A DNA stretch of 51,395 nucleotides from Candidatus Moraniibacteriota bacterium (GTDB taxonomy: Bacteria > Patescibacteriota > Minisyncoccia > Moranbacterales > DUUL01): NCBI GenBank assembly GCA_012841575.1, contig DUUL01000004.1, forward strand, positions 1-51,395, in the 5' to 3' direction. A model generated the notes under the pieces. That model saw only the letters and a list, made by a program, of their open reading frames with translations, was not told the DNA's origin and made no database searches. Positions 5,734 to 47,836 of the stretch are shown here, in pieces. Both the position numbers and the translations under genes were made by a program. Each line of letters begins with the position of its first letter. Position 1 is the stretch's first letter.

Positions 5734-5820
5734 GTGATTGAGATAGCTACTATTTACTCAGAGCAACAAAAATAAATAGGCTAATTAGATTAAAAGGTGT
5801 CGAAGTTGATTTGACACTTT

Positions 5821-5849
5821 TTAAATATCATGTTATGGTTTAACTTAGT
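5821..5849 (+). promoter_or_regulatory. Putative strong sigma70-type promoter (TTGACA - 17 nt incl. TGt - TATGGT)
   Basis: Consensus -35 TTGACA at 5821-5826. Extended -10 TG at 5841-5842 and TATGGT at 5844-5849. Upstream of the sigma4/HARE-HTH gene. Confidence 0.45.
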
Positions 5850-5931: not shown

Positions 5932-7035
5932 ATGAGCAGAAAGAAGTTAGCTAGCCCTAAAATTGACCTAAGGCTTGGCGCGAGATCTTGCGCAAAGCTT
6001 AATTTGAGTCAAATTGTTGACGAACTACTTAGCAATATTAAAGAAAGACAGCGTAAAATACTAATTAAGAGATTTGGCTTGAATGGAAGAAATCCTTTAG
6101 TGCTAGAAAAAATTGGCAGGGAATTTGGTGTGACTCGCGAGCGAATTAGGCAGATTGAAGTGGATAGCTTTCGTCGCTTAGCTTTTGTTGAAAAAAGTGA
6201 TGACTTCAAGAGGATTATCGAGCGAGCCAAAAAAGAAATTATTAAGGCTGGGGATTTTTACGAAAAAGATAAGTTGAAAGAGGTTTTGTGTCCGCAAGCC
6301 TCTAACTTAGAGAAAAATCAGTTAATGTTTATTTTGAACAGTGCTCCAGAGTTAAGTCTTAGGAAAGGAACTCTAAAGGTTGGTGGGTTTTGGTTTCTAA
6401 AAGAAAAAAATGTGCAAAAATCAGTTTTGGCAGCGCATCAATTAATCGTGAAGTTTATTAAAGAAAACAAGCGTCCTGTACGAATTGGTAAAATTGTTGA
6501 TTTTCTACAAACGACTGAACAAAAAGATTTTTTCCCAGCAGAGAAAGCTCGGAGTCGAGCAAAAATGATTTGTTTGATTAGTCGACAAATTGATAGTAAT
6601 ATTATGAATGAGTGGGGCTTGAATAATTGGCGAATTATTTCACAAAGAGGATCTGGTGAAAAGGCCTACTTAGTTTTACGGCAACAAAAAAAGCCGCTTC
6701 ATTTTAGAAAGATTGCTCAACTAATTAGCTTGAATTGGTCTGATGGAGCAGCTCTTCCACAAACGGTTCATAATGAATTAATTAAAGACAAGAAGCGTTT
6801 TGTTTTAGTGGGAAGAGGAACTTATGGCTTGAGTAGCTGGGGATTGGTTTCCGGAACAGTAAAAGAGATTATTTTAAATTATATGACCGAGGTAAATAAG
6901 CCATTAGGGAAAGAGTCTATTGTAGAGTATGTTTTAAGTCGGAGACAAGTTAAGGCAGCGACTGTTATCGTTACTTTGTCAGATCGACGTTTTTTTGCTA
7001 AAACTAAAGATGGGCTTTTTCAGCCTAGGAAATAG
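5932..7035 (+). CDS. Sigma-70 region-4-only HTH protein fused to HARE-HTH-like winged-helix domain(s); not a canonical sigma factor
   Basis: RQRKILIKRFGLNGRNPLVLEKIGREFGVTRERIRQIEVDSFRRL is a textbook sigma70 region 4.2 HTH. No region 2 is present. The C-terminal LHFRKIAQLI...KRFVLVGRGTYGLSSWG matches the HARE-HTH pattern of the RNAP delta N-domain. Confidence 0.6.
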   Translation: MSRKKLASPKIDLRLGARSCAKLNLSQIVDELLSNIKERQRKILIKRFGLNGRNPLVLEKIGREFGVTRERIRQIEVDSFRRLAFVEKSDDFKRIIERAKKEIIKAGDFYEKDKLKEVLCPQASNLEKNQLMFILNSAPELSLRKGTLKVGGFWFLKEKNVQKSVLAAHQLIVKFIKENKRPVRIGKIVDFLQTTEQKDFFPAEKARSRAKMICLISRQIDSNIMNEWGLNNWRIISQRGSGEKAYLVLRQQKKPLHFRKIAQLISLNWSDGAALPQTVHNELIKDKKRFVLVGRGTYGLSSWGLVSGTVKEIILNYMTEVNKPLGKESIVEYVLSRRQVKAATVIVTLSDRRFFAKTKDGLFQPRK

Positions 7036-7069: not shown

Positions 7070-8449
7070 ATGGCATCAAGAAACGAAGAAAGGCAGCTTG
7101 GGGTCTTTTGGGCGACAATTTCTGTTGTGGCAATTCTTTTACCAGTTGTCACTTTTTTGGCTTTAAGGGATTTATATTTTTTGAAGTTGGTTTTTGGTAT
7201 TCTGGTTAATTTTTGGTGGATAATCTTACCTTTTCCTGCTTGGTTCATCTTTAAGGGAGTCTGGGGAGAGTATACTGACATGAAGTTTGCTGTTGCGCAA
7301 AAGTACGTTCTTTTAGAAGTGATTGTTCCCTCTGATATTGAAAGAAGCCCCAAGGTAATGGAGCAGGTTTTTTACGGTTGTCATCAAAGCTCAAGAATTA
7401 ATAAGTTCGAAGAGCATTGTGGTTGGCGACCTATGCAAGTTAAGTTTACCTTTGAAATAGTTTCCACTGAAGGCAAGGTGCGTTTTTTGTTGCATTGCAC
7501 GGAAGCAGATCGCAATACACTGGAGTCCCATATTTACTCTTTTTACCCAACGGCAGAAATTTTTGAAGTAGAAGATTACACCAAAGAAGTGCCTTTAGTT
7601 TTGCCGAATCGAGATTGGGATGTTTGGGGTTCAACTTTTGCTTTAGTTAATGAGGATGCTTTACCAATAAGAACTTATTCTTATTTTAAAGAGGATGTAA
7701 CTGGAAAGATGATTGATCCGTTAGCATCTCTTTTGGAAGTAATGGGTTCTATCGGCAAGGGTCAGCATCTTTGGTATCAAATCATATTTACAGCACTAGA
7801 GGCTCATGATTGGAAACCAGATGCTGAGGCCTACATTGCAAAGTTAACCAAGCGAGCTAAGGTAAAAAAATCTGGTTGGTTTAGTAATTTAATGGGGGAA
7901 TTAGGGGTTTTGCCGAGTAATTTATTTAAAGGTTACTTTAGTCAGGAACTTGAGGGGGTTTCTTCAGAAGGCTCTTCTGATAAATTCAATATTAACGAAC
8001 TAACTCCCGGTGAACAGGAACAGCTACAAGCAATTTCAGATAATGTTTCTCGAATGGCTTTTGCGACTTCAATTCGACTGGTCTATTTAGGCAAAAGAGA
8101 TGTTTTTAGTAAGTCAGTTGGAGTGGGTGGACCAATGGGAGCGTTGAAATTATTTGCAGACGTAAACTTGAATGGCTTGAAACCTGATAATAAAACCAAG
8201 ACTTACGCAGATTATTATTTCACTCAAGCCAGAAATGCTTATCGTCAAAGAAAAATTGTGCACAACTATCGCAACCGTTCTTTTTCTGGAGCCAGCTTTG
8301 TTTTTCACACGGATGAACTGGCAACAGTCTTTCACTTTCCTGACATGTCAGTTAAAGTGGCGAATGTTTCAAGAATTGAAGCACAAAAAAGTGATGCACC
8401 TACTAATTTACCAGTGGAGGACGGAGTGGTTTTTGAGTCAAGTCGTTAA
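7070..8449 (+). CDS. Hypothetical membrane protein (two N-terminal TM helices plus a roughly 390-aa soluble domain), partner of the downstream ATPase
   Basis: 459 aa. TM helices VFWATISVVAILLPVVTFLAL and VFGILVNFWWIILPFPAWFIF. No catalytic motif recognised. 68-nt gap to the next gene on the same strand. Confidence 0.5.
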   Translation: MASRNEERQLGVFWATISVVAILLPVVTFLALRDLYFLKLVFGILVNFWWIILPFPAWFIFKGVWGEYTDMKFAVAQKYVLLEVIVPSDIERSPKVMEQVFYGCHQSSRINKFEEHCGWRPMQVKFTFEIVSTEGKVRFLLHCTEADRNTLESHIYSFYPTAEIFEVEDYTKEVPLVLPNRDWDVWGSTFALVNEDALPIRTYSYFKEDVTGKMIDPLASLLEVMGSIGKGQHLWYQIIFTALEAHDWKPDAEAYIAKLTKRAKVKKSGWFSNLMGELGVLPSNLFKGYFSQELEGVSSEGSSDKFNINELTPGEQEQLQAISDNVSRMAFATSIRLVYLGKRDVFSKSVGVGGPMGALKLFADVNLNGLKPDNKTKTYADYYFTQARNAYRQRKIVHNYRNRSFSGASFVFHTDELATVFHFPDMSVKVANVSRIEAQKSDAPTNLPVEDGVVFESSR

Positions 8450-8532
8450 TTTTAATTTGGGTAAATAAACCAAAATTAAAAATTGATTAAGTTAAATAAT
8501 TTTAAAATAAAAGTGTTGTGGAGGAAAGGGGA

Positions 8533-10206
8533 ATGATTAATTTCTTTGCTAAAACCAACTTTCAAGGAAGGGAGACAGTTTTTGGAATTAAAGAAAGAGA
8601 TCGAAAGAAACACATGCATTTTATTGGGAAAACTGATTCAGGAAAAACTGAATTGCTTTTGAATATGGCAGCTCAAGATATGCGAAATGGCAAGGGAGTT
8701 TTAATCGTTGATTCAGAGGGAGATTTAGCTCAAAAATGTTTACTAGCAGTTCCCCGTGAAAGAGCGGAGGAGGTTGTTTATTTTAATTTAGCCGACAGTG
8801 GTTTTCCTGTGGCTTTTAATTTTCTTGAAAAAATTAATCCAGATAGTCGTTTAATGGCGGCTGAACAGTTAGTAGAAATTTTTAAAAAGCTAATGGGAGA
8901 AAAATGGAATCATCGAACACATTATCTTCTAAAAAATATTTTTTTGTCACTGATGGAATATCCATCCGCGACGCTTTTGGGTGTGGAAAAGTTCCTAGCG
9001 GATGACAGCTATCGTCAAAAGGTAGTTAGTACTGTTCGCAATCAAGAAGTGCGGCAGTTTTGGACGGAAGAATTTAGCCGATATTATTCTCAAATTTTTG
9101 ACCAAGCAATTATTCCTTTGCAAAAAACAATAAGACCAATTTTAAATCATGCGACATTAAGAAATATTATTGGACAGTCAACTTCTCAATTGAAACTAGA
9201 GAATGCTTTAGCTAATCGACAAATTGTCATTTTAGATCTTTCTTCTGGTCGTAATGGAGAAAAAATTGGTTATTTACTGGGAAGTCTTTTTTTAGCTAAA
9301 CTACAACTAGCATCTTTGGAAGGTAGTGAAAAAAAGAACGATTTTCATGTTTATATTGACGAGCTACAATCTTTTATTAACAATAGTTTTTCTAATTTTT
9401 TACGAGATTTGAGTCGACAGGAGATTGGGGTTGTTTCCACTAATCAATTTGTTTTTCAGATTGAAACTGGGCTTTGGCAAGATATTTTTAAAAATGTCAG
9501 TACTATTGGCTTTTTCCAGCTTAGTAAAAATGATGTTAATTTTTTTGAAAAGGAGGGTGGTTTTATTTTTCCTGAGCAATACCTTAATCAAGCCAAGCCT
9601 TTTCATTTATTTTTAAGATTAGCCATTGATGGCAGATCTTCCAATCCTTTCATGGCTGAAACACTTGCTCCAATGAGCTTTTCAGCTGGAGATTTACAGC
9701 GAGTGGATGAGTTGGTTAGTCTTTCCCGGAAGAAGTTTGGTCAGATCAAGGAGGAAGTCGAAGTAAAAATTAACCAGTGGCTTGGTAGCAGGGAGGAGCT
9801 TTTTAAAAAAATAAGAGAAATTGCGGAAAAACAGGCTAAGATTAAAAAGAAAACTAAGAAAAAGCCAATTCGGTTTTTTGATTTTGAAGATGATTCACAA
9901 GAGCAATTTTTTGAGATTGATTGTTGGGGGTGTGGGGTCAAATCAGAAATTCCTTTTAGACCAGACGGGGAAAGTCCAGTTTTTTGCAAAAACTGCTTAA
10001 GAGAATATCGTAAGGCTCAGTCTCAAATAGAACAGCAAAAGCAGAAAAAAACAAAAACCCTGAGCAAGGAGGATAAGCAGCTTATAAGAAAAATCAAAAA
10101 ATCTAATTCGCGTTATAGCAAAAGCAAATTACCGGTGCGAGTTAAAAAAGAAATTGATCATGTTGGACTTAGGAAAATGATCGAGGCTGCAATGGAGAAA
10201 AATTAA
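8533..10206 (+). CDS. TM-less VirD4/TraD-like (type IV coupling protein-type) P-loop NTPase with a Lys-rich tail and a CxxC-x17-CxxC zinc ribbon
   Basis: Walker A HFIGKTDSGKTELLLNM and Walker B DFHVYIDELQSF are separated by an all-helical insert, as in T4CPs. C-terminal CWGCGVKSEIPFRPDGESPVFCKNC at 9922-9996. The ATG at 8533 is preferred (GGAGG 8 nt upstream) over the in-frame GTG at 8518. Confidence 0.6.
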   Translation: MINFFAKTNFQGRETVFGIKERDRKKHMHFIGKTDSGKTELLLNMAAQDMRNGKGVLIVDSEGDLAQKCLLAVPRERAEEVVYFNLADSGFPVAFNFLEKINPDSRLMAAEQLVEIFKKLMGEKWNHRTHYLLKNIFLSLMEYPSATLLGVEKFLADDSYRQKVVSTVRNQEVRQFWTEEFSRYYSQIFDQAIIPLQKTIRPILNHATLRNIIGQSTSQLKLENALANRQIVILDLSSGRNGEKIGYLLGSLFLAKLQLASLEGSEKKNDFHVYIDELQSFINNSFSNFLRDLSRQEIGVVSTNQFVFQIETGLWQDIFKNVSTIGFFQLSKNDVNFFEKEGGFIFPEQYLNQAKPFHLFLRLAIDGRSSNPFMAETLAPMSFSAGDLQRVDELVSLSRKKFGQIKEEVEVKINQWLGSREELFKKIREIAEKQAKIKKKTKKKPIRFFDFEDDSQEQFFEIDCWGCGVKSEIPFRPDGESPVFCKNCLREYRKAQSQIEQQKQKKTKTLSKEDKQLIRKIKKSNSRYSKSKLPVRVKKEIDHVGLRKMIEAAMEKN

Positions 10207-11621: not shown

Positions 11622-11653
11622 AACAGTGTTAGTTATAAATAAATAGATTGAAA

Positions 11654-13429
11654 ATGACAGGAGAAGAACTTCGGAGAAAATATCTTGAGTTTTTTAAATC
11701 CAAGGGACACGCAGTGCTGCCTTCTTTTTCAGTGGTGCCAGAAAATGATCCAACTGGTCTTTTTATTAATTCTGGAATGCATCCTTTAGTACCATATTTG
11801 ATAGGGGAAAAGCATCCCAAGGGAAAGCGTTTAACAAGCGCTCAAAAGTGCATTCGAACCATTGACATTGAAGAGGTAGGTGATGCCACGCACCATACTT
11901 TTTTTGAGATGTTGGGCAATTGGTCGTTGGGCGACTATTTTAAAAAAGAAGCAATTATGTGGAGTTGGGAATTCCTAACAGATGAAAAGTGGTTAGGAAT
12001 AGATAAGAATCGTTTGGCGGTGTCGGTTTTCGAAGGTGATGAGAATGCACCTTTTGACCAAGAGGCGTATGATATTTGGAGAGAAATTTTTGAAAAGAAT
12101 AATTTACCAGTAGAGCGGATTGCAAAGTTGCCAAAAGAAAATAATTGGTGGGGACCAGCGGGAGAGACCGGACCTTGCGGACCAGATACGGAAATGTTTT
12201 ATTGGGTGGGTAACTCTGATGAAGTGCCAAATAGTTTTAATGACGACAATGATCTTTGGGTGGAAATTTGGAATGATGTGTTTATGGAGTTTAATAAAAA
12301 AGCAGATGGAACCTTTGAAAAGTTAGCAGCACAGAATGTTGATACGGGAATGGGTTTGGTGCGAGTTTTAGTAGCTCTGAATGGATTAGACGATAATTAT
12401 AAAACGGATATTTTTTGGCCGATTATTGAAAAGATTGAAAATCTTTGTGGAAAAAAGTATGACGAAAGTGATGAATTGAAGAGAGCGTTTCGGATTATAG
12501 CTGATCATATTAAAGCGGCAGTGATGATTATGAGTGATGGAGTGGAGCCTTCGAATACTGAGCGAGGCTATATTTTACGCCGATTAATTCGGCGTGCAAT
12601 TCGGCAGGGTAAATTTTTGGGCATTGAAGATAATTTTACAGTAGAAGTAGCTAAGGTAGTGGTAGAAATATACAAGGAGATTTATCCAGAGGTAAGTAAT
12701 GAAAGAATTCTAGAGCTACTTAAAGCAGAAGAGGAGAAATTCAATAAAACAATGGAAAAGGGTGAGCGAGAAATTGAGAAATTGGCTGGCAAGGAAATTA
12801 CTGGAGAAATTGCTTTTAATCTCTTTCAAACTTATGGTTACCCAGTGGAAATGATAATGGAGGTGGCCAGAGAAAAAGGCTTGTCAATTGCGGAAGATGT
12901 TGAGCGGGATTTTAAAGTTGCTTTAGAAAAACATCAAGCACTTTCTCGCACAGCCAGTGCCGGAATGTTTAAAGGTGGCTTAGCAGATACTAAAGAGGAG
13001 ACGACGCAGCTTCACACTGTGGCACACCTAATGCTAGCAGGGTTGAGAAAGGTTTTGGGTGAGCACGTGCATCAAAAAGGTTCTAATATCAATGGAGAGC
13101 GCTTGCGATTTGATTTTTCTCATGGTGAGAAAATGACTGATGAGCAGAAGGGGCAAGTGGAAAGCTATGTCAATGAAGCAATAAAAGCTAAAGTTCCAGT
13201 GGAGGTAAATGAGATGAGTTTGGCTGAGGCTAAGGAGAAATGCGCAGAAGGAGCTTTTGAAAATAAGTATGGTGACACGGTGAAAGTTTATTCAATCGAG
13301 GGATTTTCTAATGAAATTTGTGGTGGTCCACACGTGCAAAATACTGGCGATATTAAAGGTATTTTTAGGATTAAAAAAGAACAATCTTCCAGTGCTGGAG
13401 TGCGGAGGATTAAGGCGGTGTTGGAGTAA
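11654..13429 (+). CDS. alaS: Alanine--tRNA ligase, compact form (catalytic + tRNA-recognition + minimal editing core; no C-Ala domain)
   Basis: MTGEELRRKYLEFFKSKGH, FFEMLGNWSLGDYFK, editing-site HTVAHLM and CGGPHV. The protein ends 30 aa after CGGPHV (..GVRRIKAVLE). The ATG at 11654 is preferred over the TTG at 11648. Confidence 0.85.
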   Translation: MTGEELRRKYLEFFKSKGHAVLPSFSVVPENDPTGLFINSGMHPLVPYLIGEKHPKGKRLTSAQKCIRTIDIEEVGDATHHTFFEMLGNWSLGDYFKKEAIMWSWEFLTDEKWLGIDKNRLAVSVFEGDENAPFDQEAYDIWREIFEKNNLPVERIAKLPKENNWWGPAGETGPCGPDTEMFYWVGNSDEVPNSFNDDNDLWVEIWNDVFMEFNKKADGTFEKLAAQNVDTGMGLVRVLVALNGLDDNYKTDIFWPIIEKIENLCGKKYDESDELKRAFRIIADHIKAAVMIMSDGVEPSNTERGYILRRLIRRAIRQGKFLGIEDNFTVEVAKVVVEIYKEIYPEVSNERILELLKAEEEKFNKTMEKGEREIEKLAGKEITGEIAFNLFQTYGYPVEMIMEVAREKGLSIAEDVERDFKVALEKHQALSRTASAGMFKGGLADTKEETTQLHTVAHLMLAGLRKVLGEHVHQKGSNINGERLRFDFSHGEKMTDEQKGQVESYVNEAIKAKVPVEVNEMSLAEAKEKCAEGAFENKYGDTVKVYSIEGFSNEICGGPHVQNTGDIKGIFRIKKEQSSSAGVRRIKAVLE

Positions 13430-17890: not shown

Positions 17891-19762
17891 ATGAAAAAGC
17901 AGGCTGAGCAAAGAGCAATTGACTATTTGAGACAGTATAAAGATCAGTTTGATCAAGAGGAATTAAAAGGTCAACTTCTTAAAGCTGGCTATGAGGAGGA
18001 TGTGGTTGGGCAAGCGTTGAAGGTTGCTTATGAAGAAACTAAACTAGAAGAACCCCCAGTTGTGCCGCCTTCTGTTTCAGAGGAAAAAGAACCAGATAAA
18101 AATCAATCGAGAGTGGTGGCAATTGTTTTAACAATAGGTGCGCTTTTCATAGGACTTGGCTTCTTTTCTTTTTTAGCAACAAATTGGGAGAAAATAGGTG
18201 ATGCATTAAAGTTAATCCTATTTCTTGGCTCTATGATTGGTGCTTATGCGCTAGGCTGGTACTTAAAGGAGGTAAAGAATTATGCTCGCACTGGAGTTTC
18301 TTTATTTTTCTTAGGGACGTTATTGTATGGTGCTAATTTATTTCTAATCGGTCAGATTTTTCACATTCCAGTTTACTGGATGGACGGTTTTTTGCTTTGG
18401 ATGCTGGGTGTCCTAGCTATTTCATTTATTTTTGAAAGTAGAATTTTTTACTACCTAGCTCTTTTATTAGGATTTGTTTCACTTCCTGGCTATTTTTATT
18501 ATTTTATATTAGGAATTGTTTCTTCAGATCTCTCGCCTTCCAGTGCCCCCTTGGTTAATGATTCATATATAGCTATTTCGGTTATCTTAAGTATTATTTC
18601 AGCGGCTTCAGTTTTTTGGATTGGCCTGGTTTTGAGAAAAAAGGTTTCTAGTGGAGCAGAAGATTTAGTTGGGGAGGGAAAGTCTGAAGTATCGAGTAGT
18701 GGTGACTGGACTGGTTTTGGTTGGATTGTTTTTGCTAGTGTTCTCATCCCAATTTTTGGTTGGCTTTACCTATTGTTCAATTTTATTTCTAGGAAAAAGA
18801 TTTCACCGAAGGAAAAGGAATTTTATTTTATGAGTGAACTCTTTTTCATGTTAACAATTGCTTTTGTGGGAGTTTTTATCTTACTTTCTGGTTATGTATT
18901 AGGGATTGGATATATTGGAGGAGGCGCTTTGTTTATTGCTATGTTAATCGGTTTTTTAATCGCCTATTACTTCGATTCAATAACAACCCTTTTTATGGCA
19001 ATGTTTCTAGTTATGAGTTGGTGGATGTTTAAGGCTTCATTTTGGTTGGATGAAGCAGGTGTTCATGAGTTTGCAAAGTTTATTGGGCTTTGGCTGATAG
19101 GTTCCCTGGGCTATATTTTTGCTAGATTGGTTATGCGCAAGAAAGAGTTTTTTTCCAAGGCTTTATTTATTTTCTCTGTTCCAATAATCATTTTTTATAT
19201 TCTTGTTTTGTCAACTGAGAGTGGAGTTATGGCTATTGAATCTTTAATGGAGGGTGATTCAATATTTAATTCTTGGAAGTTAATGATTGTTTTAACAGGA
19301 CTCTTATTTGCTGTAGTTGGCTTGTCAGTCTACTCTTTATCTAAAAAGCTAATTGTCTTAGTAGAGGTTGCATTGTTAATAGTTTTTTCTTTTCTGCTTT
19401 TTTTCTTAGGTCTGTTGCCCGAGCTCGAATTCTTCAAAAGCAACTATGATTCTGTAACTGCCTCCTATAAAGCAGGTCTTTCCTTATCAGCAGCGGGGAT
19501 AGCTTTTCTAGTTTTAACAAACATCATTTTATTTTCTATCTTTTTGGGAGCTGTATTTATTGGCTATAAGCAAAAGAATCAAACACTTGTGAATATTGGA
19601 CTTTCGTTAATTTTTGTTTTTGCCGTGATTAAATACTTTAACTTCTTTTTTAGCTTCTTGGATAAGAGCATATTTTTTACTACAGCTGGAATATTATTTA
19701 TGGTGTTTGGTTGGGCAATGGAGGTTGGGCGTAGAAAAATTTTAAATGAAATTAAACAGTAA
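17891..19762 (+). CDS. Large polytopic membrane protein, DUF2157/DUF4401-like
   Basis: 623 aa. A soluble roughly 75-aa N-terminal helical domain followed by well over ten hydrophobic helices. The call rests on architecture and on the GDYXXLXY gene immediately downstream, a known conserved pairing. Confidence 0.45.
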   Translation: MKKQAEQRAIDYLRQYKDQFDQEELKGQLLKAGYEEDVVGQALKVAYEETKLEEPPVVPPSVSEEKEPDKNQSRVVAIVLTIGALFIGLGFFSFLATNWEKIGDALKLILFLGSMIGAYALGWYLKEVKNYARTGVSLFFLGTLLYGANLFLIGQIFHIPVYWMDGFLLWMLGVLAISFIFESRIFYYLALLLGFVSLPGYFYYFILGIVSSDLSPSSAPLVNDSYIAISVILSIISAASVFWIGLVLRKKVSSGAEDLVGEGKSEVSSSGDWTGFGWIVFASVLIPIFGWLYLLFNFISRKKISPKEKEFYFMSELFFMLTIAFVGVFILLSGYVLGIGYIGGGALFIAMLIGFLIAYYFDSITTLFMAMFLVMSWWMFKASFWLDEAGVHEFAKFIGLWLIGSLGYIFARLVMRKKEFFSKALFIFSVPIIIFYILVLSTESGVMAIESLMEGDSIFNSWKLMIVLTGLLFAVVGLSVYSLSKKLIVLVEVALLIVFSFLLFFLGLLPELEFFKSNYDSVTASYKAGLSLSAAGIAFLVLTNIILFSIFLGAVFIGYKQKNQTLVNIGLSLIFVFAVIKYFNFFFSFLDKSIFFTTAGILFMVFGWAMEVGRRKILNEIKQ

Positions 19763-19773
19763 TTTCTCAATTT

Positions 19774-20340
19774 ATGAAAAAAATTGATAAGAATAGTGCG
19801 TTAAAGTTGTTGGCGGTGGTTTTGGTGCAACTCTTTATTGTCTTTAGTTTAGGGGCTTATTACTTTTCAATTCATCAAGGTGGAGAAATAATCAGGCTTG
19901 AAATTGAGCCAGTAGATCCGACTGACCTAATTAGAGGAGACTATGTTGTTTTTAGTTATAGAGGTATTTCTAGAATTTATTTATCTGAACATGGATACTC
20001 CGAAGAATCCTTTCGGTTAGGAGATAATATCTACGTTTCTTTAGTTGAGAGAAGCGATGGCGTTTCGCAATTAGGAGAGGTTAGCAAGGAAAAGCCAGAA
20101 TCGGGAGTTTTTTTAACGGGGAGAGTAAAAAAAATAAGGCAAGATACTGCAACAGTTATTTATGGAATTGAAGAGTATTTTATTCCAGAGAGAACTGGAA
20201 GAATGGTTGAATTTCGGGGTAAAAAGGTTGAGGCAGAGGTGGCTGTTTCTAAAACAGGAAAAGCAGTTTTGCGGGAAATATATTTAAACGGTGAGGTTTG
20301 GCCAGGATCAAAATCAGAAGATCGTAATTGGGTAGAGTAA
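19774..20340 (+). CDS. GDYXXLXY-domain protein, N-terminally anchored
   Basis: IEPVDPTDLIRGDYVVFSY carries the family-defining GDYxx(L/F)xY motif. N-terminal TM LLAVVLVQLFIVFSLGAYYF. 11-nt gap after the preceding gene. Confidence 0.6.
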   Translation: MKKIDKNSALKLLAVVLVQLFIVFSLGAYYFSIHQGGEIIRLEIEPVDPTDLIRGDYVVFSYRGISRIYLSEHGYSEESFRLGDNIYVSLVERSDGVSQLGEVSKEKPESGVFLTGRVKKIRQDTATVIYGIEEYFIPERTGRMVEFRGKKVEAEVAVSKTGKAVLREIYLNGEVWPGSKSEDRNWVE

Positions 20341-41894: not shown

Positions 41895-41934
41895 AAATAA
41901 TTCTTTAATTTTATTTTTTTACAAAGAATTATTT
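41895..41934. terminator. Bidirectional terminator between convergent genes
   Basis: A perfect 12-bp inverted repeat, AAATAATTCTTT (41895-41906) with AAAGAATTATTT (41923-41934), around a T-rich loop. The right arm overlaps the stop of the minus-strand gene. Confidence 0.55.
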
Positions 41935-43518
41935 TCTAAAAACCAAAAGAGCAAATCTACCAGTTTCAAATTCAGCCACTAAGCGGGTGGATTTTTTATA
42001 ATGGTCGATGTTTTTCTTTTTTCTGTCCTTGTTGACAATAACGAAAAAAGTTTCCTCTTGAGAAAGTTTACTTTCAGAAACAAAAGATATTCTGAGTGAT
42101 TCTTTTTCTTGACAAATGTATTCCAGGGATCTTCCATATTCAAATTTTTTAATTCGAGCCTCATTTTCTCCAGAGATTTTCTTGATTGAATCACAGAGGC
42201 TATTTAGCTCTTTTTGACTAATGCCGCCATAAACACTGAGGGGTAGTTGATAGTTTTCTAGAGCATAGGCCTTGTTGTAGATAAAAAAGTTGTTTCCTAG
42301 GAGCAGTGCAAAACAAAAAATGGCTACAATTTGTTTTGGCGTGCTGTTTCTTTTTAAAAATTGTTGAACAATCAAGCCTAGTAAAAAAAATGGAATGGGA
42401 ATTAAAATAATGAAAAAGCGTATATTTAATTCTCCTCCGATTACCACAAAAAGGAAAAATGAGAGCAGGGAAAACGTTAATAGTAAGAAAGAGGAAAAGT
42501 TTTTACTAAGTAAATCTTTTTTGTTTTTTAGAAATTTTTTCCAAAAAGCAAAAAATCCTAGAGCGATAAAAACCAAAGACAAGCACAGTTGAGTTAATTC
42601 TTGGAAGTTACGCAGAGATATCATCTTAGAAAGGTTAAGCCAATTACTTTTTGGTGCTTGGCCGGTTAAAGTATAAAAAGTTCCTTGCAGAAAAAATGTA
42701 GCAGTGTTGCCTAGATTTTCAAAAAAACTTAATTCATTGTCGGTTTTTTTCTGAGCTCCGCTAAAAAAAGCACGTAAATTTTCTCCCTGATTTTCTAAAC
42801 TGCCGTAGACAAAAGGAATATTGAGGGTAAAAATGACTATTAGCAATAGAGTGATTTTGGTCCAGGGGAAATCAGACTTTATTTTATAGAAAAGCATCAA
42901 CCCCAGAGTCAATAAGAGCATTGCTGGCATTAAGATTAATAAGGTTGTGTGCAGTTGAACGCCAATCCCAGTAACAACTCCCAGTAGAAGACAGTCTAGC
43001 CAACTAAGTTTCTCTTTATTGTAAATTTGACTGAGCAATAAGAAAAAGGCTAAGAGGAAAAAGGGAATCGCATTGGGGTTCCAAGCAAAACGAGAATATT
43101 TAATAACAAAAAAAGAGCTTGCATAAAGTAAGGAAAGTCCTAGTGCTAGAGGGAGAGAAAATATTTTTCGGAAAAATAGGTAAAAAAGATAGATAGAGGC
43201 AATAGACAGCAATGGAATGAAAAAAGCAATTCCTGTTGGTGAGAATCCAAAAAATAGGCCAGATAAAAATTCTAAATAATAGAAAGCTGGTCCTAAATTG
43301 AAGGTAGTTCCGCCAGCTTTTGGTCCGAGCAAGGGCCAGTTGCCAGATTGCATTTCTTGTACAACTTTAATGTCTCGAGCTTGGTCATTGTTGAAACGAA
43401 GGTAATCGCCAAAATAACTAAGACGTAGCCAGGCGCCAAGCAATAAAACAAGAACAATTAGGATTTTTGCTGGATGCTTTTTTATTTTTTTGTAAACAGA
43501 ATTCAAATAATTAATCAT
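41929..43518 (-). CDS. GT-C-fold polytopic membrane glycosyltransferase, 'DQARD' subtype (ArnT/PMT-related)
   Basis: 529 aa. The first-loop acidic motif RFNNDQARD is followed by GNWPLLGPKAGGTTFNLGPAFYY. About 12 TM helices plus a C-terminal soluble domain. Paralog of the partial CDS at 50668. Confidence 0.6.
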   Translation of the reverse strand: MINYLNSVYKKIKKHPAKILIVLVLLLGAWLRLSYFGDYLRFNNDQARDIKVVQEMQSGNWPLLGPKAGGTTFNLGPAFYYLEFLSGLFFGFSPTGIAFFIPLLSIASIYLFYLFFRKIFSLPLALGLSLLYASSFFVIKYSRFAWNPNAIPFFLLAFFLLLSQIYNKEKLSWLDCLLLGVVTGIGVQLHTTLLILMPAMLLLTLGLMLFYKIKSDFPWTKITLLLIVIFTLNIPFVYGSLENQGENLRAFFSGAQKKTDNELSFFENLGNTATFFLQGTFYTLTGQAPKSNWLNLSKMISLRNFQELTQLCLSLVFIALGFFAFWKKFLKNKKDLLSKNFSSFLLLTFSLLSFFLFVVIGGELNIRFFIILIPIPFFLLGLIVQQFLKRNSTPKQIVAIFCFALLLGNNFFIYNKAYALENYQLPLSVYGGISQKELNSLCDSIKKISGENEARIKKFEYGRSLEYICQEKESLRISFVSESKLSQEETFFVIVNKDRKKKNIDHYKKSTRLVAEFETGRFALLVFRK

Positions 43519-43536
43519 TAACTTTTTTGTTTCCAG

Positions 43537-45435
43537 CTATTTTTCAAATTCAATTATGCGAACAAAATTAGCTGGACGATTATTAATATTAAGTTCCCAG
43601 GTTGGATTTATCTCACCTTTTTTAAAATAGTAAAAAGTGTCTTTTTCTTCATCAGGATTATTCTCAAAAATGAAATGATTTTTTTCTTTCAGAATCGCTC
43701 GAGTGGAAACAATCAAATAGTCTGGTTGAATTTGCGCAAGATCAATTTTTCGACTACGCAAACATTTACCCTTGAAGAAAAGACAGAATGAGTTGCTATT
43801 GGAGTAGACAACCATGTTTTCTACGCCCTCAAGGGAATTTAGATGTTGTGCTGCTTCATAAAATCCATGTCCCCAAGTGTCGTGAATGCTATATTTCTTT
43901 GGCAATAGAAAACTTTCATAGCTAAAGTAGAAGGGTTTGATTTGCCAGAGAGATAAGACGCTAAGAGTTAGAATGGTAAATAAAATAGCTATAATTTTTT
44001 TCTTAGAAGTCCAGCCGATAGATTTCATGATCTCATTTAGAGCAATGGCGCAGAAGATAGCAAAGAGCGGGTAGAGGATAATTGAGTAGCGTACGTTGGT
44101 GACAATTTTCGCAACAAAGGTAGCAAAAAAATAAAGAGGAATAAATAAAGCAATGGTGAAAAGGATTAAGTTATTGGGGTAAGTTATTTTTTGGCGATAG
44201 GACTTGAGGGTAATGAGCAAGACTAATAAAACAAAAAAAGGCGAGACGGAGAAAATAAAGGGATAAGTCTCCATTAACAATAATTTAAAATTATCATACA
44301 AGGTTGCATTTTTTCGATCCAAAAGAGGTTTGAAATTAAAGTTTTTCGGTTCATTTGCGTAGGCTAGGTCACTCAACTCATTAACTGGAGCTAGACTTTG
44401 ATTTGTCCAAAGATTGAAAATTGAAATGATGAAAACTAGACTTAGTAGAGTTAATGAACTAGCCAAGAGAAACTTTTGCCATTTTGACAGAAAAGCAGAA
44501 ATTTGAGCGGTTAGGTCTTTTTTCCAAAAAACTAAAGCTAAAAAAATTATTAAAGTTATTGTGCCCAAATAAATTAACTTTGAGTTTAAAAATTGTGCAA
44601 TTCCTTCAAAAAATACTTGTGGTTTGACAAAAGTAGCGGGTAGAAAAATAGCAAAAATAATTGCTGAAATTAGAAAAATAACAAGCCAAGAGCCAATTAA
44701 TCTAGGGAGAAAAGTTGCATCAAGAGGTTTTGATTCAGAACTTTTTTCTTTCGGTGGAAAAATTAATTTAGCTAGTCCAGCTATAATAAAAATAGCGTAT
44801 AAAATAAAAGAAGTATATTTAGATAGAAGTGCAAAGCCCATTAAAATTGAACAAATAATCAAAAATTTCTTTTGGTTAGTATTGAGATAGGCTAAATAAG
44901 CAACAGTTGTGAGTCCTCCAAAAATCCAGAAAAAGCTATCGGGGTTAATAATTTGTGAAATTCCAATCAGAATTGGACTTAGCCCGATAAACATTGTTGT
45001 CATTAAAGCAAGTCGAGTTGAGCCCAGAGCCGGTTTTAGCAAGAAGAAAAAAGCTAAAATAGAAAGAGTGGAGAAAATTAAAATTGGCAAACGAAAATAG
45101 AAATTAAGCTGCTCAGTTTTCTGAGGATCATATTTTTTAAATAATTTGGCATCTTCAGTGGCACTAAGAGAGCTTGATAACTTGGGATCGGGTTCTGCAA
45201 GCAAGCCGAAGCCAGAGATTAACGCCACAGTAATTCCAGGCTTATCATTGATGGATGTTTTTACCCAGTCTCTATCTTGCAACGCCTGCCAATATTGTCC
45301 AATGCGACCATATTTCCAAAGGTGCTCATCAGCAGTTTCAAACTTACTTAAGTGGTAAAAACCAAAACTGAAAAAAACAACAATAGTCATTGCTAAGAAA
45401 AGATAAGTAGAGTTTTTTTGCAAGAACTTTTTCAT
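43537..45435 (-). CDS. GT39/PMT_2-like (ArnT-type) polyprenyl-phosphate-sugar-dependent membrane glycosyltransferase
   Basis: 632 aa. First periplasmic-loop motif TADEHLWKYGR...INDKPGITV. Polytopic, with a C-terminal soluble domain. Confidence 0.65.
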   Translation of the reverse strand: MKKFLQKNSTYLFLAMTIVVFFSFGFYHLSKFETADEHLWKYGRIGQYWQALQDRDWVKTSINDKPGITVALISGFGLLAEPDPKLSSSLSATEDAKLFKKYDPQKTEQLNFYFRLPILIFSTLSILAFFFLLKPALGSTRLALMTTMFIGLSPILIGISQIINPDSFFWIFGGLTTVAYLAYLNTNQKKFLIICSILMGFALLSKYTSFILYAIFIIAGLAKLIFPPKEKSSESKPLDATFLPRLIGSWLVIFLISAIIFAIFLPATFVKPQVFFEGIAQFLNSKLIYLGTITLIIFLALVFWKKDLTAQISAFLSKWQKFLLASSLTLLSLVFIISIFNLWTNQSLAPVNELSDLAYANEPKNFNFKPLLDRKNATLYDNFKLLLMETYPFIFSVSPFFVLLVLLITLKSYRQKITYPNNLILFTIALFIPLYFFATFVAKIVTNVRYSIILYPLFAIFCAIALNEIMKSIGWTSKKKIIAILFTILTLSVLSLWQIKPFYFSYESFLLPKKYSIHDTWGHGFYEAAQHLNSLEGVENMVVYSNSNSFCLFFKGKCLRSRKIDLAQIQPDYLIVSTRAILKEKNHFIFENNPDEEKDTFYYFKKGEINPTWELNINNRPANFVRIIEFEK

Positions 45436-45499
45436 TTTGAGGGCAATTTAATGTTTATTGGGTAAACTTAGTTTAAGTAAGTCAAGTTAAATGCTTGTT

Positions 45500-47836
45500 T
45501 TATTTATCAATACAAACATCTTCGGCTTTAATTACTTTAATGTATTGAGCTTGAGGACGTTGTGCAGGAGAGAAAAGAAAGACAGGCTGTAAGTTCGGGT
45601 CATAGAGACGATCAACTCGAGGTATGTATGTAGGCACTTTAGCTAAGCGTTGATTAATAAGGTTGACAAAATAATTTTCACGACTAGAGGAAATTACATA
45701 AAAGTCATAAGTGGGTATTTCTGGTATAATTTTTTCTATTCTTCTAGTATCGTTACAGTTTCCAACAAAAAACTTACAGATCCCGGTTCGATCTGACCAC
45801 AATGAAAGCTCTGAGGCATTAGGTTGTTGATTTAGCCACATAGCTACTTCATAATTGCCTTCTCCCATGTCTTTAGGATTGATTACCATGCTTGAGGGGA
45901 GAAGAGGATTGTTAAAAGAAAAATAATAAGGCTTTTGCAACCAAAGCATCGAAGTGCTTTCGACAGCAATCAAAAAAAGAAAGATTAAAATAAAAACCTT
46001 GCCTGTCTTATTTGATCTGTAGACAATAATTTTTTCCAAAACTGGTTTCCAGCCTAGAGCAGCGATGATCAATATAATAGGGAGTAGAGCGATTTGGTAG
46101 CGGAGACTAGGAACAACAGAGGCGCTTAATGAGGCTAGATAGTAACCGTGAATAAAGAGCCAACTAAAAAGCAAGATTCTTTTTTCTGAATCAGAGTAGT
46201 TTTTTTTCCAAGGTGAATTAAAGAAGAAGGAAAAAATAACACCAAGAAAGGAAAAGAGATTCAGGCCGAAAACCAAGGGAAGGAAAGAAGCTAAATACAT
46301 TCCCGCAAAACTAAATTCTCGATAGGATGATTTGGGGGAGATTAAAATTGAGTTGAAGTTAACAGAAGGCAAAGCAAAATAAACGCTGCTTAGTAAAAGT
46401 AGAAAGGCAGCTCCAGACCACAGCCAGACAAAAGTGCTGAAATGATTTTTTAGTGGTTTGAGAAATTTAAATAAAAGAAAGGAGATTCGATTTCGGAGCA
46501 GGAATGTTTCTAGAAGAAACAAGACAAGCACGCCAGTAAAAATCCAACCAAAATTACCAAAAGCTTGACTTTTAATAGTGCCGATTAGCAATCGATCATG
46601 TTTTAGCCAAACGCCGGGATAAAGTAAGGTGAATATAGAAAGTGCGATAACCAGCCAACTTAAATAATTTAGCCAACTTTTTTTTAAGAAAGAATGAAGT
46701 GTTTGCAGATTATTCGTTTTGAAAAGTGCTTGATAAAGAATAACCAAGAAGATGAAAACAATCAGGAAATTGGCAATGTATTTTGTCAACAAGGCAAGCC
46801 CCAGCAAGATCCCACTGTAAATTAAGAACTTGTTTTTATTCCGAGAAGAAAGCAGGAAGGCTAGGTAAGCAAAAAAGGACAAAGGGAGAAAAATCCATAG
46901 CAAGGCGTCCGGGTTGACCAAGCGAGATATTCCTAGAAGTAAGGGAGAAAGTCCGATAAAGATTGTTGCAAGTAGAGCAGGAATTTTTCCTATTAGAGGA
47001 TTTAATAAAAAGAAAAAAGCTAGAATCGCTAAAGTTGAAAAGACAACAATTGGCGCTCTCATTCGAGTAAAAAATCTTGGTAATTCCTCGGTGTTTTTCT
47101 GTCCCTTGTCAAAGTAGTTAGGATCTTCCCATGGTAATCCAGCACCAGAGATGATTGAGACAGTGATACCTGGTTTGTCACTAGGGCGAGTGTTAAGCCA
47201 ATCTTTTTCAGCTAAATTGTTCCAGTATTTTTCAATCCGATTAAAAAACCATAAGTCTTCATCAGAATAATAGTCTTGGCCTAGCTTATAGAAACCAAAA
47301 AATAAATGAAGAGCAAGAATAAGTACTAATAAAATTGCTTTTGAATAGAAAGGTTTTTTAAGTCTAGGTTTAGTTGGGCTTTTAATTAAAAAAGAGATTT
47401 TTGGGAAAACCAAGTTTAGTTTTAAGTAATAAAAAACTAAAAAGTTAAGAAAAAGTAGAAATAGAAAAATGGAGGAGATGGGAATAATGGGATTAAAGGA
47501 GTTAGGGGTATTCGAAGTAAAAAGTAAAATTAAGTTGGCTGGAGTTACTAGCCAAAAAAAGTTAAAAAAGAAAGTGGTCCAGTTATTTTTTTTCTTAATT
47601 AAATCGTTAATTAGGGGTAGAAAGGAAATTACAAAAACAATTAAAATTAGAAAAGTTGGCGGAGCAAAAGGAGGGAGAATATTTTTTATGCCATAAAACT
47701 GCTCCAGGTTGTTAATTGAGTACAATAAAACTAAAATTCCAAGTGACAAAGAACCACTTAATAAAAAAATATTTTCACGAAAAATTTTTTTAACTTGATT
47801 TAAAACAGCCATCTTGTATACTAGGTAATTAATCAC
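45500..47836 (-). CDS. GT39/PMT_2-like membrane glycosyltransferase, tandem paralog with a roughly 165-aa extra N-terminal multi-TM extension
   Basis: 778 aa. YSDEDLWFFNR...PSDKPGITV and FSTLAILAFFFLLNP align with the upstream-neighbour paralog. The start is either the GTG at 47836 or the ATG 24 nt inside. Confidence 0.65.
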   Translation of the reverse strand: MINYLVYKMAVLNQVKKIFRENIFLLSGSLSLGILVLLYSINNLEQFYGIKNILPPFAPPTFLILIVFVISFLPLINDLIKKKNNWTTFFFNFFWLVTPANLILLFTSNTPNSFNPIIPISSIFLFLLFLNFLVFYYLKLNLVFPKISFLIKSPTKPRLKKPFYSKAILLVLILALHLFFGFYKLGQDYYSDEDLWFFNRIEKYWNNLAEKDWLNTRPSDKPGITVSIISGAGLPWEDPNYFDKGQKNTEELPRFFTRMRAPIVVFSTLAILAFFFLLNPLIGKIPALLATIFIGLSPLLLGISRLVNPDALLWIFLPLSFFAYLAFLLSSRNKNKFLIYSGILLGLALLTKYIANFLIVFIFLVILYQALFKTNNLQTLHSFLKKSWLNYLSWLVIALSIFTLLYPGVWLKHDRLLIGTIKSQAFGNFGWIFTGVLVLFLLETFLLRNRISFLLFKFLKPLKNHFSTFVWLWSGAAFLLLLSSVYFALPSVNFNSILISPKSSYREFSFAGMYLASFLPLVFGLNLFSFLGVIFSFFFNSPWKKNYSDSEKRILLFSWLFIHGYYLASLSASVVPSLRYQIALLPIILIIAALGWKPVLEKIIVYRSNKTGKVFILIFLFLIAVESTSMLWLQKPYYFSFNNPLLPSSMVINPKDMGEGNYEVAMWLNQQPNASELSLWSDRTGICKFFVGNCNDTRRIEKIIPEIPTYDFYVISSSRENYFVNLINQRLAKVPTYIPRVDRLYDPNLQPVFLFSPAQRPQAQYIKVIKAEDVCIDK

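Follow-up and report, generated by a model that had tools for sequence, protein, structure and literature searches.

What might a coupling-protein-like ATPase do in a stretch of chromosome without conjugation genes? The question is raised by two adjacent genes of a Candidatus Moraniibacteriota bacterium (assembly GCA_012841575.1, contig DUUL01000004.1), of which we analyzed positions 1 to 51,395 of the forward strand; this whole stretch of 51,395 nucleotides is called the window below. Both open reading frames (ORFs) lie on the + strand. Gene 1 (7070-8449, 459 aa) encodes a membrane protein of the family DUF8128 (PF26449), and gene 2 (8518-10206) encodes a protein that resembles the ATPases TrwB and VirD4. 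With >900 homologues of gene 1 and >1,500 of gene 2 in the databases, the two are not chance ORFs. An earlier note, made from the letters alone, had described them as an orphan module in which a membrane protein supplies the anchor that a coupling protein lacks. Our analysis suggests that they encode one ATPase of VirB4-like architecture, split in a linker, and it places them in a conserved three-gene operon of Patescibacteria chromosomes, whose products we think somewhat likely to form a membrane-tethered motor that engages DNA.

The ATPase and its membrane partner

Gene 2 carries the Walker A motif GKTDSGKT (aa 37-44, nt 8626-8649) and the Walker B motif VYIDELQ (aa 278-284, nt 9349-9369). 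An AlphaFold2 (AF2) model with a predicted local distance difference test score (pLDDT) of 83 places an all-alpha domain (aa ~108-232) between them, and a hydropathy scan found no transmembrane (TM) segment in the protein, so the earlier picture of a TM-less ATPase with an all-alpha insert agrees with sequence, hydropathy, and model alike. The gene reads as 562 aa from a GTG at 8518, but more likely as 557 aa from an ATG at 8533, since a GGAGG Shine-Dalgarno sequence (8520-8524) and the N-terminus of the family (M..I.FFAKTNF) favor the latter. The distance of 68-83 nt from gene 1 given in the earlier note can accordingly be narrowed to 83 nt; the shorter gap, which goes with the GTG, is less likely.

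When the model was compared with the PDB by Foldseek, TrwB (E ~1e-11, template modelling score (TM-score) 0.64-0.67 normalised to TrwB) and DotL led the list, in line with the expectation that TraD, VirD4, or TrwB would be the best matches; DndH-C, HerA, Cag-beta, TdpAB, and VirB4 followed lower down. By sequence, the window protein matched only TrwB_AAD_bind (4.3e-5) and DotL (5e-3). Typical members of its family match better, TrwB_AAD_bind reaching 4e-18 in one of them (P0124), and they also match DUF87, TraG-D_C, and a zinc finger. The hidden Markov model (HMM) of the family scored 32.6 bits against TrwB versus 14 bits against the VirB4 of pGO1. Gene 2 is, as predicted from sequence and model, a TrwB/VirD4-type ATPase.

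The C-terminal part of gene 2 contains a treble-clef zinc ribbon of the CxxC-x17-CxxC type (9904-10005), with the cysteines C469-x2-C472-x17-C490-x2-C493 spanning 9922-9996. It scored above the curated cut-offs of both Pfam zf_Tbcl_2 (PF23477; 36.2 bits, cut-off 27, E 4.9e-9) and TIGR04272 (36.8 bits, cut-off 36, E 2.3e-9), which bears out the ribbon that the earlier note had read in a Lys-rich tail. In the AF2 model pLDDT is ~80-87 over the ribbon and <50 in the flanking segments; the ribbon follows a disordered linker, and the last 121 residues of the protein are 27% Lys+Arg. Zinc binding has been shown for archaeal CxxC-x17-CxxC members, and such ribbons are also found in RNA polymerase (RNAP) subunits and TFIIB-type factors (PMC12704099). 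Conserved peptides mark subsets of the gene 2 homologues at their C-termini (alignment A2, columns ~1000-1014): one subset ends in (L/I)KPGE.IKF, another has ...SL.QM..I.PK.F... followed by (V/I)(N/D)L..(V/L)R.LI, which the window protein retains as HVGLRKMI. Both look like short docking motifs.

In gene 1, the hydropathy scan confirmed the two N-terminal TM helices seen earlier (aa 12-32 and 40-61, nt 7103-7165 and 7187-7252). This hairpin is followed by an alpha/beta domain (aa ~77-424), the linker motif TDELATVFHFP (aa 414-424, nt 8309-8341), and a disordered tail with an invariant AP.NLP peptide (nt 8396-8413). The charge around the TM segments, in two-TM and one-TM variants of the protein, suggests that the soluble domain is cytoplasmic. 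Gene 1 had zero matches in our local Pfam, NCBIfam, PADLOC, and PDB sequence libraries; its assignment to DUF8128 comes from precomputed Pfam annotation, in which PF26449 covers the window protein itself and nearly all homologues, and the local Pfam copy may lack this model. A DUF8128 protein from Falkowbacteria (L087, 4281-5984) has a charged C-terminal extension of ~110 aa that repeats AP.NLP at its extreme end (EAPSNLPFME), suggesting a functional tail motif; the peptide looks like a docking motif.

The AF2 model of gene 1 (pLDDT 80, predicted TM-score 0.73) shows the TM hairpin, a repeated beta-alpha-beta domain, and the disordered tail. All 13 PDB chains that it matched at E<1e-3 were TrwK/VirB4 of the R388 type IV secretion system (T4SS), with Foldseek probabilities of 0.99-1.0 and a TM-score of ~0.33. 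Among the viral models of BFVD it matched gp156 of Bacillus phage G (E 3e-17, TM-score 0.50), the VirB4-like gp155 (5e-7), and a 'type IV transporter component' (1e-4). The fold-search output carries no residue ranges; because gene 1 has no P-loop and the Walker A motif of gp155 lies at residue 347, we took the match to be to the N-terminal domain. The soluble domain, in which the earlier note had recognized no catalytic motif, then has a predicted fold like that of the VirB4 N-terminal domain, a likeness at the level of fold only. Sequence comparisons gave nothing significant: phmmer and profile searches against PDB sequences found no match, CagE_TrbE_VirB and AAA_10 profiles had no match in the Pfam and NCBIfam scans, and an HMM search of DUF8128 against VirB4-type references returned just a 5.7-bit match of a TM helix to VirB3. 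It is thus fold comparison that carries the link to VirB4.

The relationship between the two genes became clear from single-chain relatives. The 824-position profile of PHROG 5156 covers both: its positions 59-290 match gene 1 (E 2.4e-12), and its positions 411-809 match gene 2 (E 3.8e-39, or 7e-66 for a typical family member). In gp156 of phage G (825 aa), the match of the DUF8128 HMM extends over aa 48-320 (3.7e-15) and that of the motor HMM over aa 381-801 (5e-58); gp27.4 of Bacillus phage SPO1 (906 aa) and an 800-aa protein of the Clostridium botulinum plasmid pCLK are further fusions of this kind. When we aligned the fusions with concatenated gene 1 and gene 2 products, the motif EELAT.FHFP paired with QEMSQFIHLP, KELAQLMQLP, and LELSKIINVP, 35-75 residues before Walker A, and the break between the Patescibacterial genes therefore falls in the linker between the domains. 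The earlier remark that TDELATVFHFP resembles linkers preceding NTPase cores was sound to this extent. A regular-expression search for motifs of the ELAT..FHFP type in canonical VirB4 proteins and T4CPs (type IV coupling proteins) found none, so the motif is specific to the DUF8128/gene 2 family and its fused relatives. Since single-chain forms exist, the sequences indicate that the pair is a split ATPase of VirB4 architecture. Gene 1 does bring the TM hairpin that gene 2 lacks, as the earlier note had supposed, but as the other part of a split ATPase and not as an unrelated anchor that was borrowed.

The fusions, whose existence had been suggested as a check, surfaced through PHROGs and through phage and plasmid searches, and no fused protein was present among the 150 best of 3,240 DUF8128 representative clusters. 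Their genomic contexts are conjugation-like. In SPO1 (L092, 3747-7284) the gene for the fused ATPase gp27.4 overlaps that for gp27.3, a Replic_Relax nickase ('replication initiation by nicking'), near a partition protein, and the two resemble a conjugation-style pair of T4CP and relaxase inside a lytic phage. In phage G, gp156 is preceded by a VirB4-like TraG-P-loop ATPase. In pCLK (L093, 8567-11367) a TrbC/VirB2 pilin gene overlaps the start of the fused ATPase gene (CLK_RS19280), whose product had no match in the local Pfam library; pCLK, a botulinum-toxin plasmid, is typed as 'non-mobilizable' by MOB-suite.

A conserved three-gene operon

The module proved to have three members and not the two first described. 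Directly upstream of gene 1 lies gene 0 (5932-7035, + strand), which encodes a cytoplasmic protein of 367 aa with several helix-turn-helix (HTH) modules and is as conserved as the pair. Pfam matches identify a sigma-70 region 4 domain (aa 33-83, nt 6028-6180) and an RNAP-delta-like HARE-HTH domain (aa 244-303, nt 6661-6840), and a further winged helix is found at aa 311-345. The family profile of gene 0 matched region 4 of SigA/RpoD structures in the PDB (E 1e-18), relatives of the protein score up to 45.9 bits against TIGR04567 (RNAP delta; cut-off 42), and the JGI label of the family is 'RNA polymerase delta subunit'. The sigma region 4 domain of gene 0 also matches MzaA of the MZA system. 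The HARE-HTH domain has been proposed as a reader of modified bases (PMC10853773).

We examined synteny in two passes. In the first, which covered 80 species-representative genomes with a DUF8128 relative and three loci found earlier (83 loci), the motor gene was immediately downstream of DUF8128 on the same strand in 82 loci, and the gene for the sigma region 4/HARE-HTH protein was immediately upstream, again on the same strand, in 80. The synteny of the pair on which the earlier note had made its reading depend is therefore present in nearly all of these loci. In the second pass, all neighbors in 88 loci were clustered: gene 0 occurred in 85, gene 1 in 88, and gene 2 in 85, collinear, while the next most frequent neighbor, MnmA, occurred in 35. 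The same trio is found in four more distant lineages, a Falkowbacteria genome among them, with a gene 1-gene 2 spacing of 3-16 nt and amid unrelated flanks (SecDF, DnaK/DnaJ, PGK, RuBisCO). The trio is a conserved three-gene operon of Patescibacteria chromosomes.

In the window, no terminator-like site was found between the genes of the trio; the single +-strand match within it lies inside the coding sequence of gene 1. The gap of 199 nt upstream of gene 0 contains a promoter-like site with a TG element (TTGACA-17-TATGGT, 5811-5839, + strand). It agrees with the consensus at 10 of 12 positions and is the best match in the region, but the number of such sites is not above the expectation from shuffled sequence, so that it is no more than a candidate operon promoter.

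No T4SS or relaxase gene was among the recurrent neighbors in the 88 loci, and none for a relaxase, VirB4 or another T4SS component, or a pilus was found among the 27 neighboring ORFs scanned in the window, as the earlier note had also observed for the surroundings of the pair. The flanks of the trio are housekeeping genes (glycosidases, FemAB, YkuD, the Ala-, Tyr-, and Phe-tRNA synthetases, M23, MltG, FtsW, Dxr, MurJ, and PMT-family transferases) and the GC content of the window is uniform (0.34-0.40); the surroundings are ordinary chromosome. A phage origin of the window copy was rejected, as DUF8128 had one fragmentary match in 2.9 million IMG/VR viral contigs.

Nor is the module a rare orphan. 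DUF8128 comprises 3,240 representative clusters at E<=1e-3 and was found in no fewer than 547 GTDB species genomes, including Moraniibacteriota, Parcubacteria, Paceibacteria, Minisyncoccota, and Falkowbacteria; the family is part of the core genome and widely distributed. Orphan coupling-protein homologues have, moreover, been published: 5,713 VirD4-type homologues are reported in 2,918 of 3,035 Patescibacteria genomes (96%, ~2 per genome), 148 of them near virB4, whereas VirB4 is found in 2,417 genomes; the authors state that exaptation of the VirD4-type homologues 'cannot be ruled out' (PMC12102498). We infer that the gene 2 family is among these homologues. A literature search found no paper naming DUF8128, PF26449, or the operon. 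Orphan VirD4-type genes were already known, but their operon context appears undescribed. At least one family of the published genes thereby gains a context, consisting of an obligate VirB4-fold membrane partner, an equally obligate DNA- or RNAP-binding partner, and single-chain relatives, and what was an unexplained gene count becomes a testable three-protein machine in organisms that depend on traffic with a host cell. DUF8128 in turn gains a fold and a partner, which hints at how VirB4-type and VirD4-type ATPases relate.

Possible roles of the trio

We consider it somewhat probable that the trio is a motor which descends from conjugation machinery, is tethered to the membrane, and engages DNA. 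Gene 2 would assemble into a hexameric ring that gene 1 holds at the cytoplasmic membrane, the contact probably being made by the linker of gene 1 and the AP.NLP peptide at its C-terminus. DNA or a nucleoprotein complex would be chosen and bound by gene 0 together with the zinc-ribbon tail, and ATP hydrolysis would move this substrate at the membrane, either alone or by feeding a Patescibacterial T4SS encoded elsewhere in the genome. The link to DNA is provided by the zinc ribbon and basic tail of gene 2, by the three HTH modules of gene 0, and by the neighbors of the fused homologues, a Replic_Relax nickase gene after the one in SPO1 and a VirB2 pilin gene before the one in pCLK. A bolder version, in which the trio is a self-sufficient three-part pump for DNA or nucleoprotein across the Patescibacteria, independent of any T4SS and with the sigma region 4/HARE-HTH protein as its 'address reader', is in our view doubtful. 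If true, the trio would define a new class of minimal translocases with an origin in conjugation machinery; it could serve to exchange DNA with the epibiont's host cell or to take it up from there, or to handle the chromosome.

The gene 2 copy of the window has diverged in an unusual way. Across the family, the ATPase core is better conserved than either of the other two proteins, with a median pairwise identity of 68%, and of 75-84% within the clade of the window; the core of the window protein is just 37-40% identical to its own-clade relatives, with gene 0 and gene 1 at normal distances. At near-invariant columns, taken as those with a conservation of 95% or more among the other 81 loci, the window deviates at 78 of 165 in gene 2, at 4 of 54 in gene 1, and at 1 of 39 in gene 0. 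Walker A keeps its Lys, and Walker B its Asp-Glu. Compared with a sister contig (L094), the rate of nonsynonymous substitution (dN) of gene 2 is 0.21, versus 0.10-0.14 for neighboring genes, and its ratio to the synonymous rate (dN/dS) is ~0.16, with dS saturated. The changes are common to the sister protein (P0122) and are thus old and maintained. That gene 2 is a pseudogene was rejected, given an intact ORF in both the window and the sister and the dN/dS value; these comparisons indicate that gene 2 of the window is derived and fast-evolving, and still under purifying selection.

Several observations weigh against a membrane-tethered DNA motor, the first of them from this divergent copy. In place of the DPHG of the family it has DSEG (8707-8724), and in place of EARKYR it has DLSRQE (within an RDLSRQE stretch, 9403-9423), so that the conserved R, presumably an arginine finger, is replaced by Ser, with an Arg one position later. 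In a close relative (L004, CAZKWX010000007.1, 1732-4062) gene 0 and DUF8128 are intact and the motor gene is gone: DUF8128 is directly followed by a TrmB-like regulator and MnmA, the genes which come after the motor in another relative (L001). This locus looks like a clean deletion of gene 2, suggesting that dependence on the motor is relaxed in the clade of the window, where the motor may be dispensable or re-purposed. The resemblance of gene 1 to TrwK/VirB4 is distant (TM-score ~0.33, sequence identity ~10%), and hhalign gave probabilities of <1% for the DUF8128 alignment against TrwK (R388 sequence NC_028464) and against TrsD and TrsE of pGO1. Sigma region 4 and HARE-HTH are, in known contexts, domains that bind RNAP, which would allow for a transcription complex, instead of free DNA, as the substrate. 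Finally, a T4CP homologue of Ca. Southlakia is not essential for epibiotic growth (PMC12102498).

Four other explanations were weighed. The first, which we regard as unlikely, is that the operon encodes a dedicated coupling protein that serves a Patescibacterial T4SS in trans. DUF8128 would dock the motor on the VirB3/VirB4/VirB6 complex of the inner membrane, and gene 0 would be a substrate-recruiting factor, as a substitute for a relaxase, or the secreted substrate itself. The VirB4 N-terminal-domain fold of gene 1 fits such docking, the fused relative of pCLK directly follows a VirB2 pilin gene, and phage G pairs its fused relative with a VirB4-like ATPase. In addition, T4CP genes often lie far from virB4, and most Patescibacteria have a T4SS of the monoderm type and no relaxases (PMC12102498). 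However, T4CP homologues are present in more genomes than VirB4 (2,918 versus 2,417), the 88 neighborhoods contained zero T4SS genes, and in Southlakia other T4SS genes are essential while the T4CP homologue is not (PMC12102498).

Gene 0 lends itself to a different explanation, in which the trio acts on transcription complexes and has no part in DNA transport: gene 0 would bind RNAP by means of its sigma region 4 and HARE-HTH domains, and the ATPase, aided by a zinc ribbon like that of TFIIB, would remodel or release it, or keep transcribed DNA at the membrane. By its match to SigA/RpoD structures, gene 0 has a nearly canonical group-1 sigma region 4 as its N-terminal domain; its C-terminal domain reaches the NCBIfam cut-off for RNAP delta in relatives, in agreement with the JGI family name, and RNAP subunits and TFIIB-type factors contain ribbons of the type found in gene 2 (PMC12704099). 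Yet in structure gene 2 is related to DNA translocases or secretion ATPases, and sigma region 4 and HARE-HTH are also found as plain DNA-binding modules. Moreover, we know of no RNAP remodeler with a T4CP-type motor or a membrane anchor. We think this explanation distinctly improbable.

More improbable still is a stand-alone DNA pump modeled on known ones, either an importer like Ced, to which the earlier note had compared the pair, or a chromosome translocase like FtsK, SpoIIIE, or TraB, where a pore would be formed or gated by the hairpins of gene 1, with gene 0 in the role of the gamma domain of FtsK. The modules do parallel those of FtsK and TraB (anchor, motor, and sequence-reading winged HTH), one relative (L001) has a ComEC gene a few genes upstream, and these organisms depend on external nucleotides. 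Against an importer, the similarity to Ced proteins turned out to be negligible: gene 2 scored 19.2 bits against CedB (cut-off 700) and 15.8 bits against CedD (cut-off 600), aligning in the P-loop region alone, and the linkage to ComEC is not conserved in the 88 loci. One or two TM helices per subunit are also thin for a pore. The trio as a replacement for FtsK was marked down because Saccharibacteria such as TM7x possess ftsK according to published papers, and a replacement is thus unneeded. 

An anti-phage or DNA-surveillance system akin to MADS mad8, DndH, and TdpAB, with HARE-HTH sensing modified DNA as has been proposed for this domain, is in our view highly improbable despite a best PADLOC match to mad8 (9e-12 to 1e-18, the latter for the gene 2 family; HerA and DndH weaker), the presence of DndH-C and TdpAB among the top fold matches of gene 2, and the MzaA match of gene 0, because defence systems are usually patchy and island-borne whereas the trio is widespread (DUF8128 in at least 547 species genomes) and occupies a core-genome position with one copy per locus in the 88 loci, because neither the window ORFs scanned nor these loci contained a linked methyltransferase, nuclease, or other effector gene, and because DUF8128 had no PADLOC match.

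Chromosomal setting and comparison with known systems

The window as a whole has a marked strand bias. Over its first ~42 kb (1-41900) the + strand carries all ORFs of at least 110 aa, bar one short ORF nested in a + strand gene, and the GC skew is strongly positive throughout (0.19-0.38), which fits a single replichore arm with an extreme leading-strand gene bias. The sole large minus-strand block (41929-47836) consists of three consecutive paralogues of 529, 632, and 778 aa that belong to the PMT/PMT_2 family of dolichyl-phosphate-mannose-type glycosyltransferases. The alanyl-tRNA synthetase at 11648-13429 is just 593 aa long and terminates at its tRNA_SAD domain, presumably without the C-terminal domain usual in the canonical enzyme; short forms of 591-597 aa are also found downstream of the trio in two relatives (L094 and L090). 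Two uncharacterised families lie side by side at 17891-20340, where a DUF2157 membrane protein of 623 aa precedes a GDYXXLXY protein of 188 aa. Searches of the window for tRNAs and Rfam families gave zero matches.

Among known systems, the archaeal Ced importer (CedA/CedB) shares with the pair the combination of a membrane protein and an ATPase of the VirB4/HerA superfamily that handles DNA. A polytopic CedA-like protein is absent from the locus, however, and gene 1 combines two TM helices with a domain like the VirB4 N-terminal domain. FtsK, SpoIIIE, and TraB of Streptomyces resemble the whole trio in belonging to the FtsK-HerA superfamily and in uniting a membrane anchor, a hexameric motor, and a sequence-reading winged helix. 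In the trio these modules are distributed over three proteins; there is no FtsK_SpoIIIE Pfam match and no gamma domain, and the motor is of the T4CP branch.

The T4CPs (TrwB of R388, VirD4, TraD, and DotL) have the RecA-type nucleotide-binding domain, the Walker A and B motifs, and the inserted all-alpha domain predicted for gene 2, and they provide its best fold matches in the PDB and its best sequence matches (TrwB_AAD_bind, TraG-D_C). Gene 2 differs from them in lacking a TM domain at the N-terminus of its own chain, the TM hairpin being on gene 1, and in being preceded by a separate membrane protein like the VirB4 N-terminal domain. It also carries a zinc ribbon on a disordered basic linker at its C-terminus, lies on the chromosome without a relaxase or T4SS gene in its vicinity, and shares its operon with a sigma region 4/HARE-HTH protein. 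In VirB4 (TrwK of R388), as in genes 1 and 2 together, an N-terminal alpha/beta domain at the membrane is followed by a motor domain, and the TrsC/TrsD/TrsE set of pGO1 is a precedent for encoding the N-terminal part of VirB4 (TrsD) in a separate gene beside the motor; TrsD has been noted to be common (PMC12102498). Unlike VirB4, the pair has no profile-level similarity to TrwK, TrsD, or TrsE, its motor is closer to TrwB than to VirB4, and it is encoded by two genes with VirB2, VirB6, and VirB8 not nearby; the TM hairpin of gene 1 is fused to the domain like the VirB4 N-terminal domain, whereas VirB3 is a separate protein.

The proteins of PHROG 5156 differ from the pair in being fused and in their mobile-element contexts, beside a Replic_Relax nickase, a VirB4-like ATPase, or a VirB2 pilin, and one of them, gp27.4 of SPO1, has no N-terminal TM hairpin. 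They are nevertheless direct homologues of the pair, with a DUF8128-like domain and a T4CP-like motor in one chain of 800-906 aa, joined by the same junction motif.

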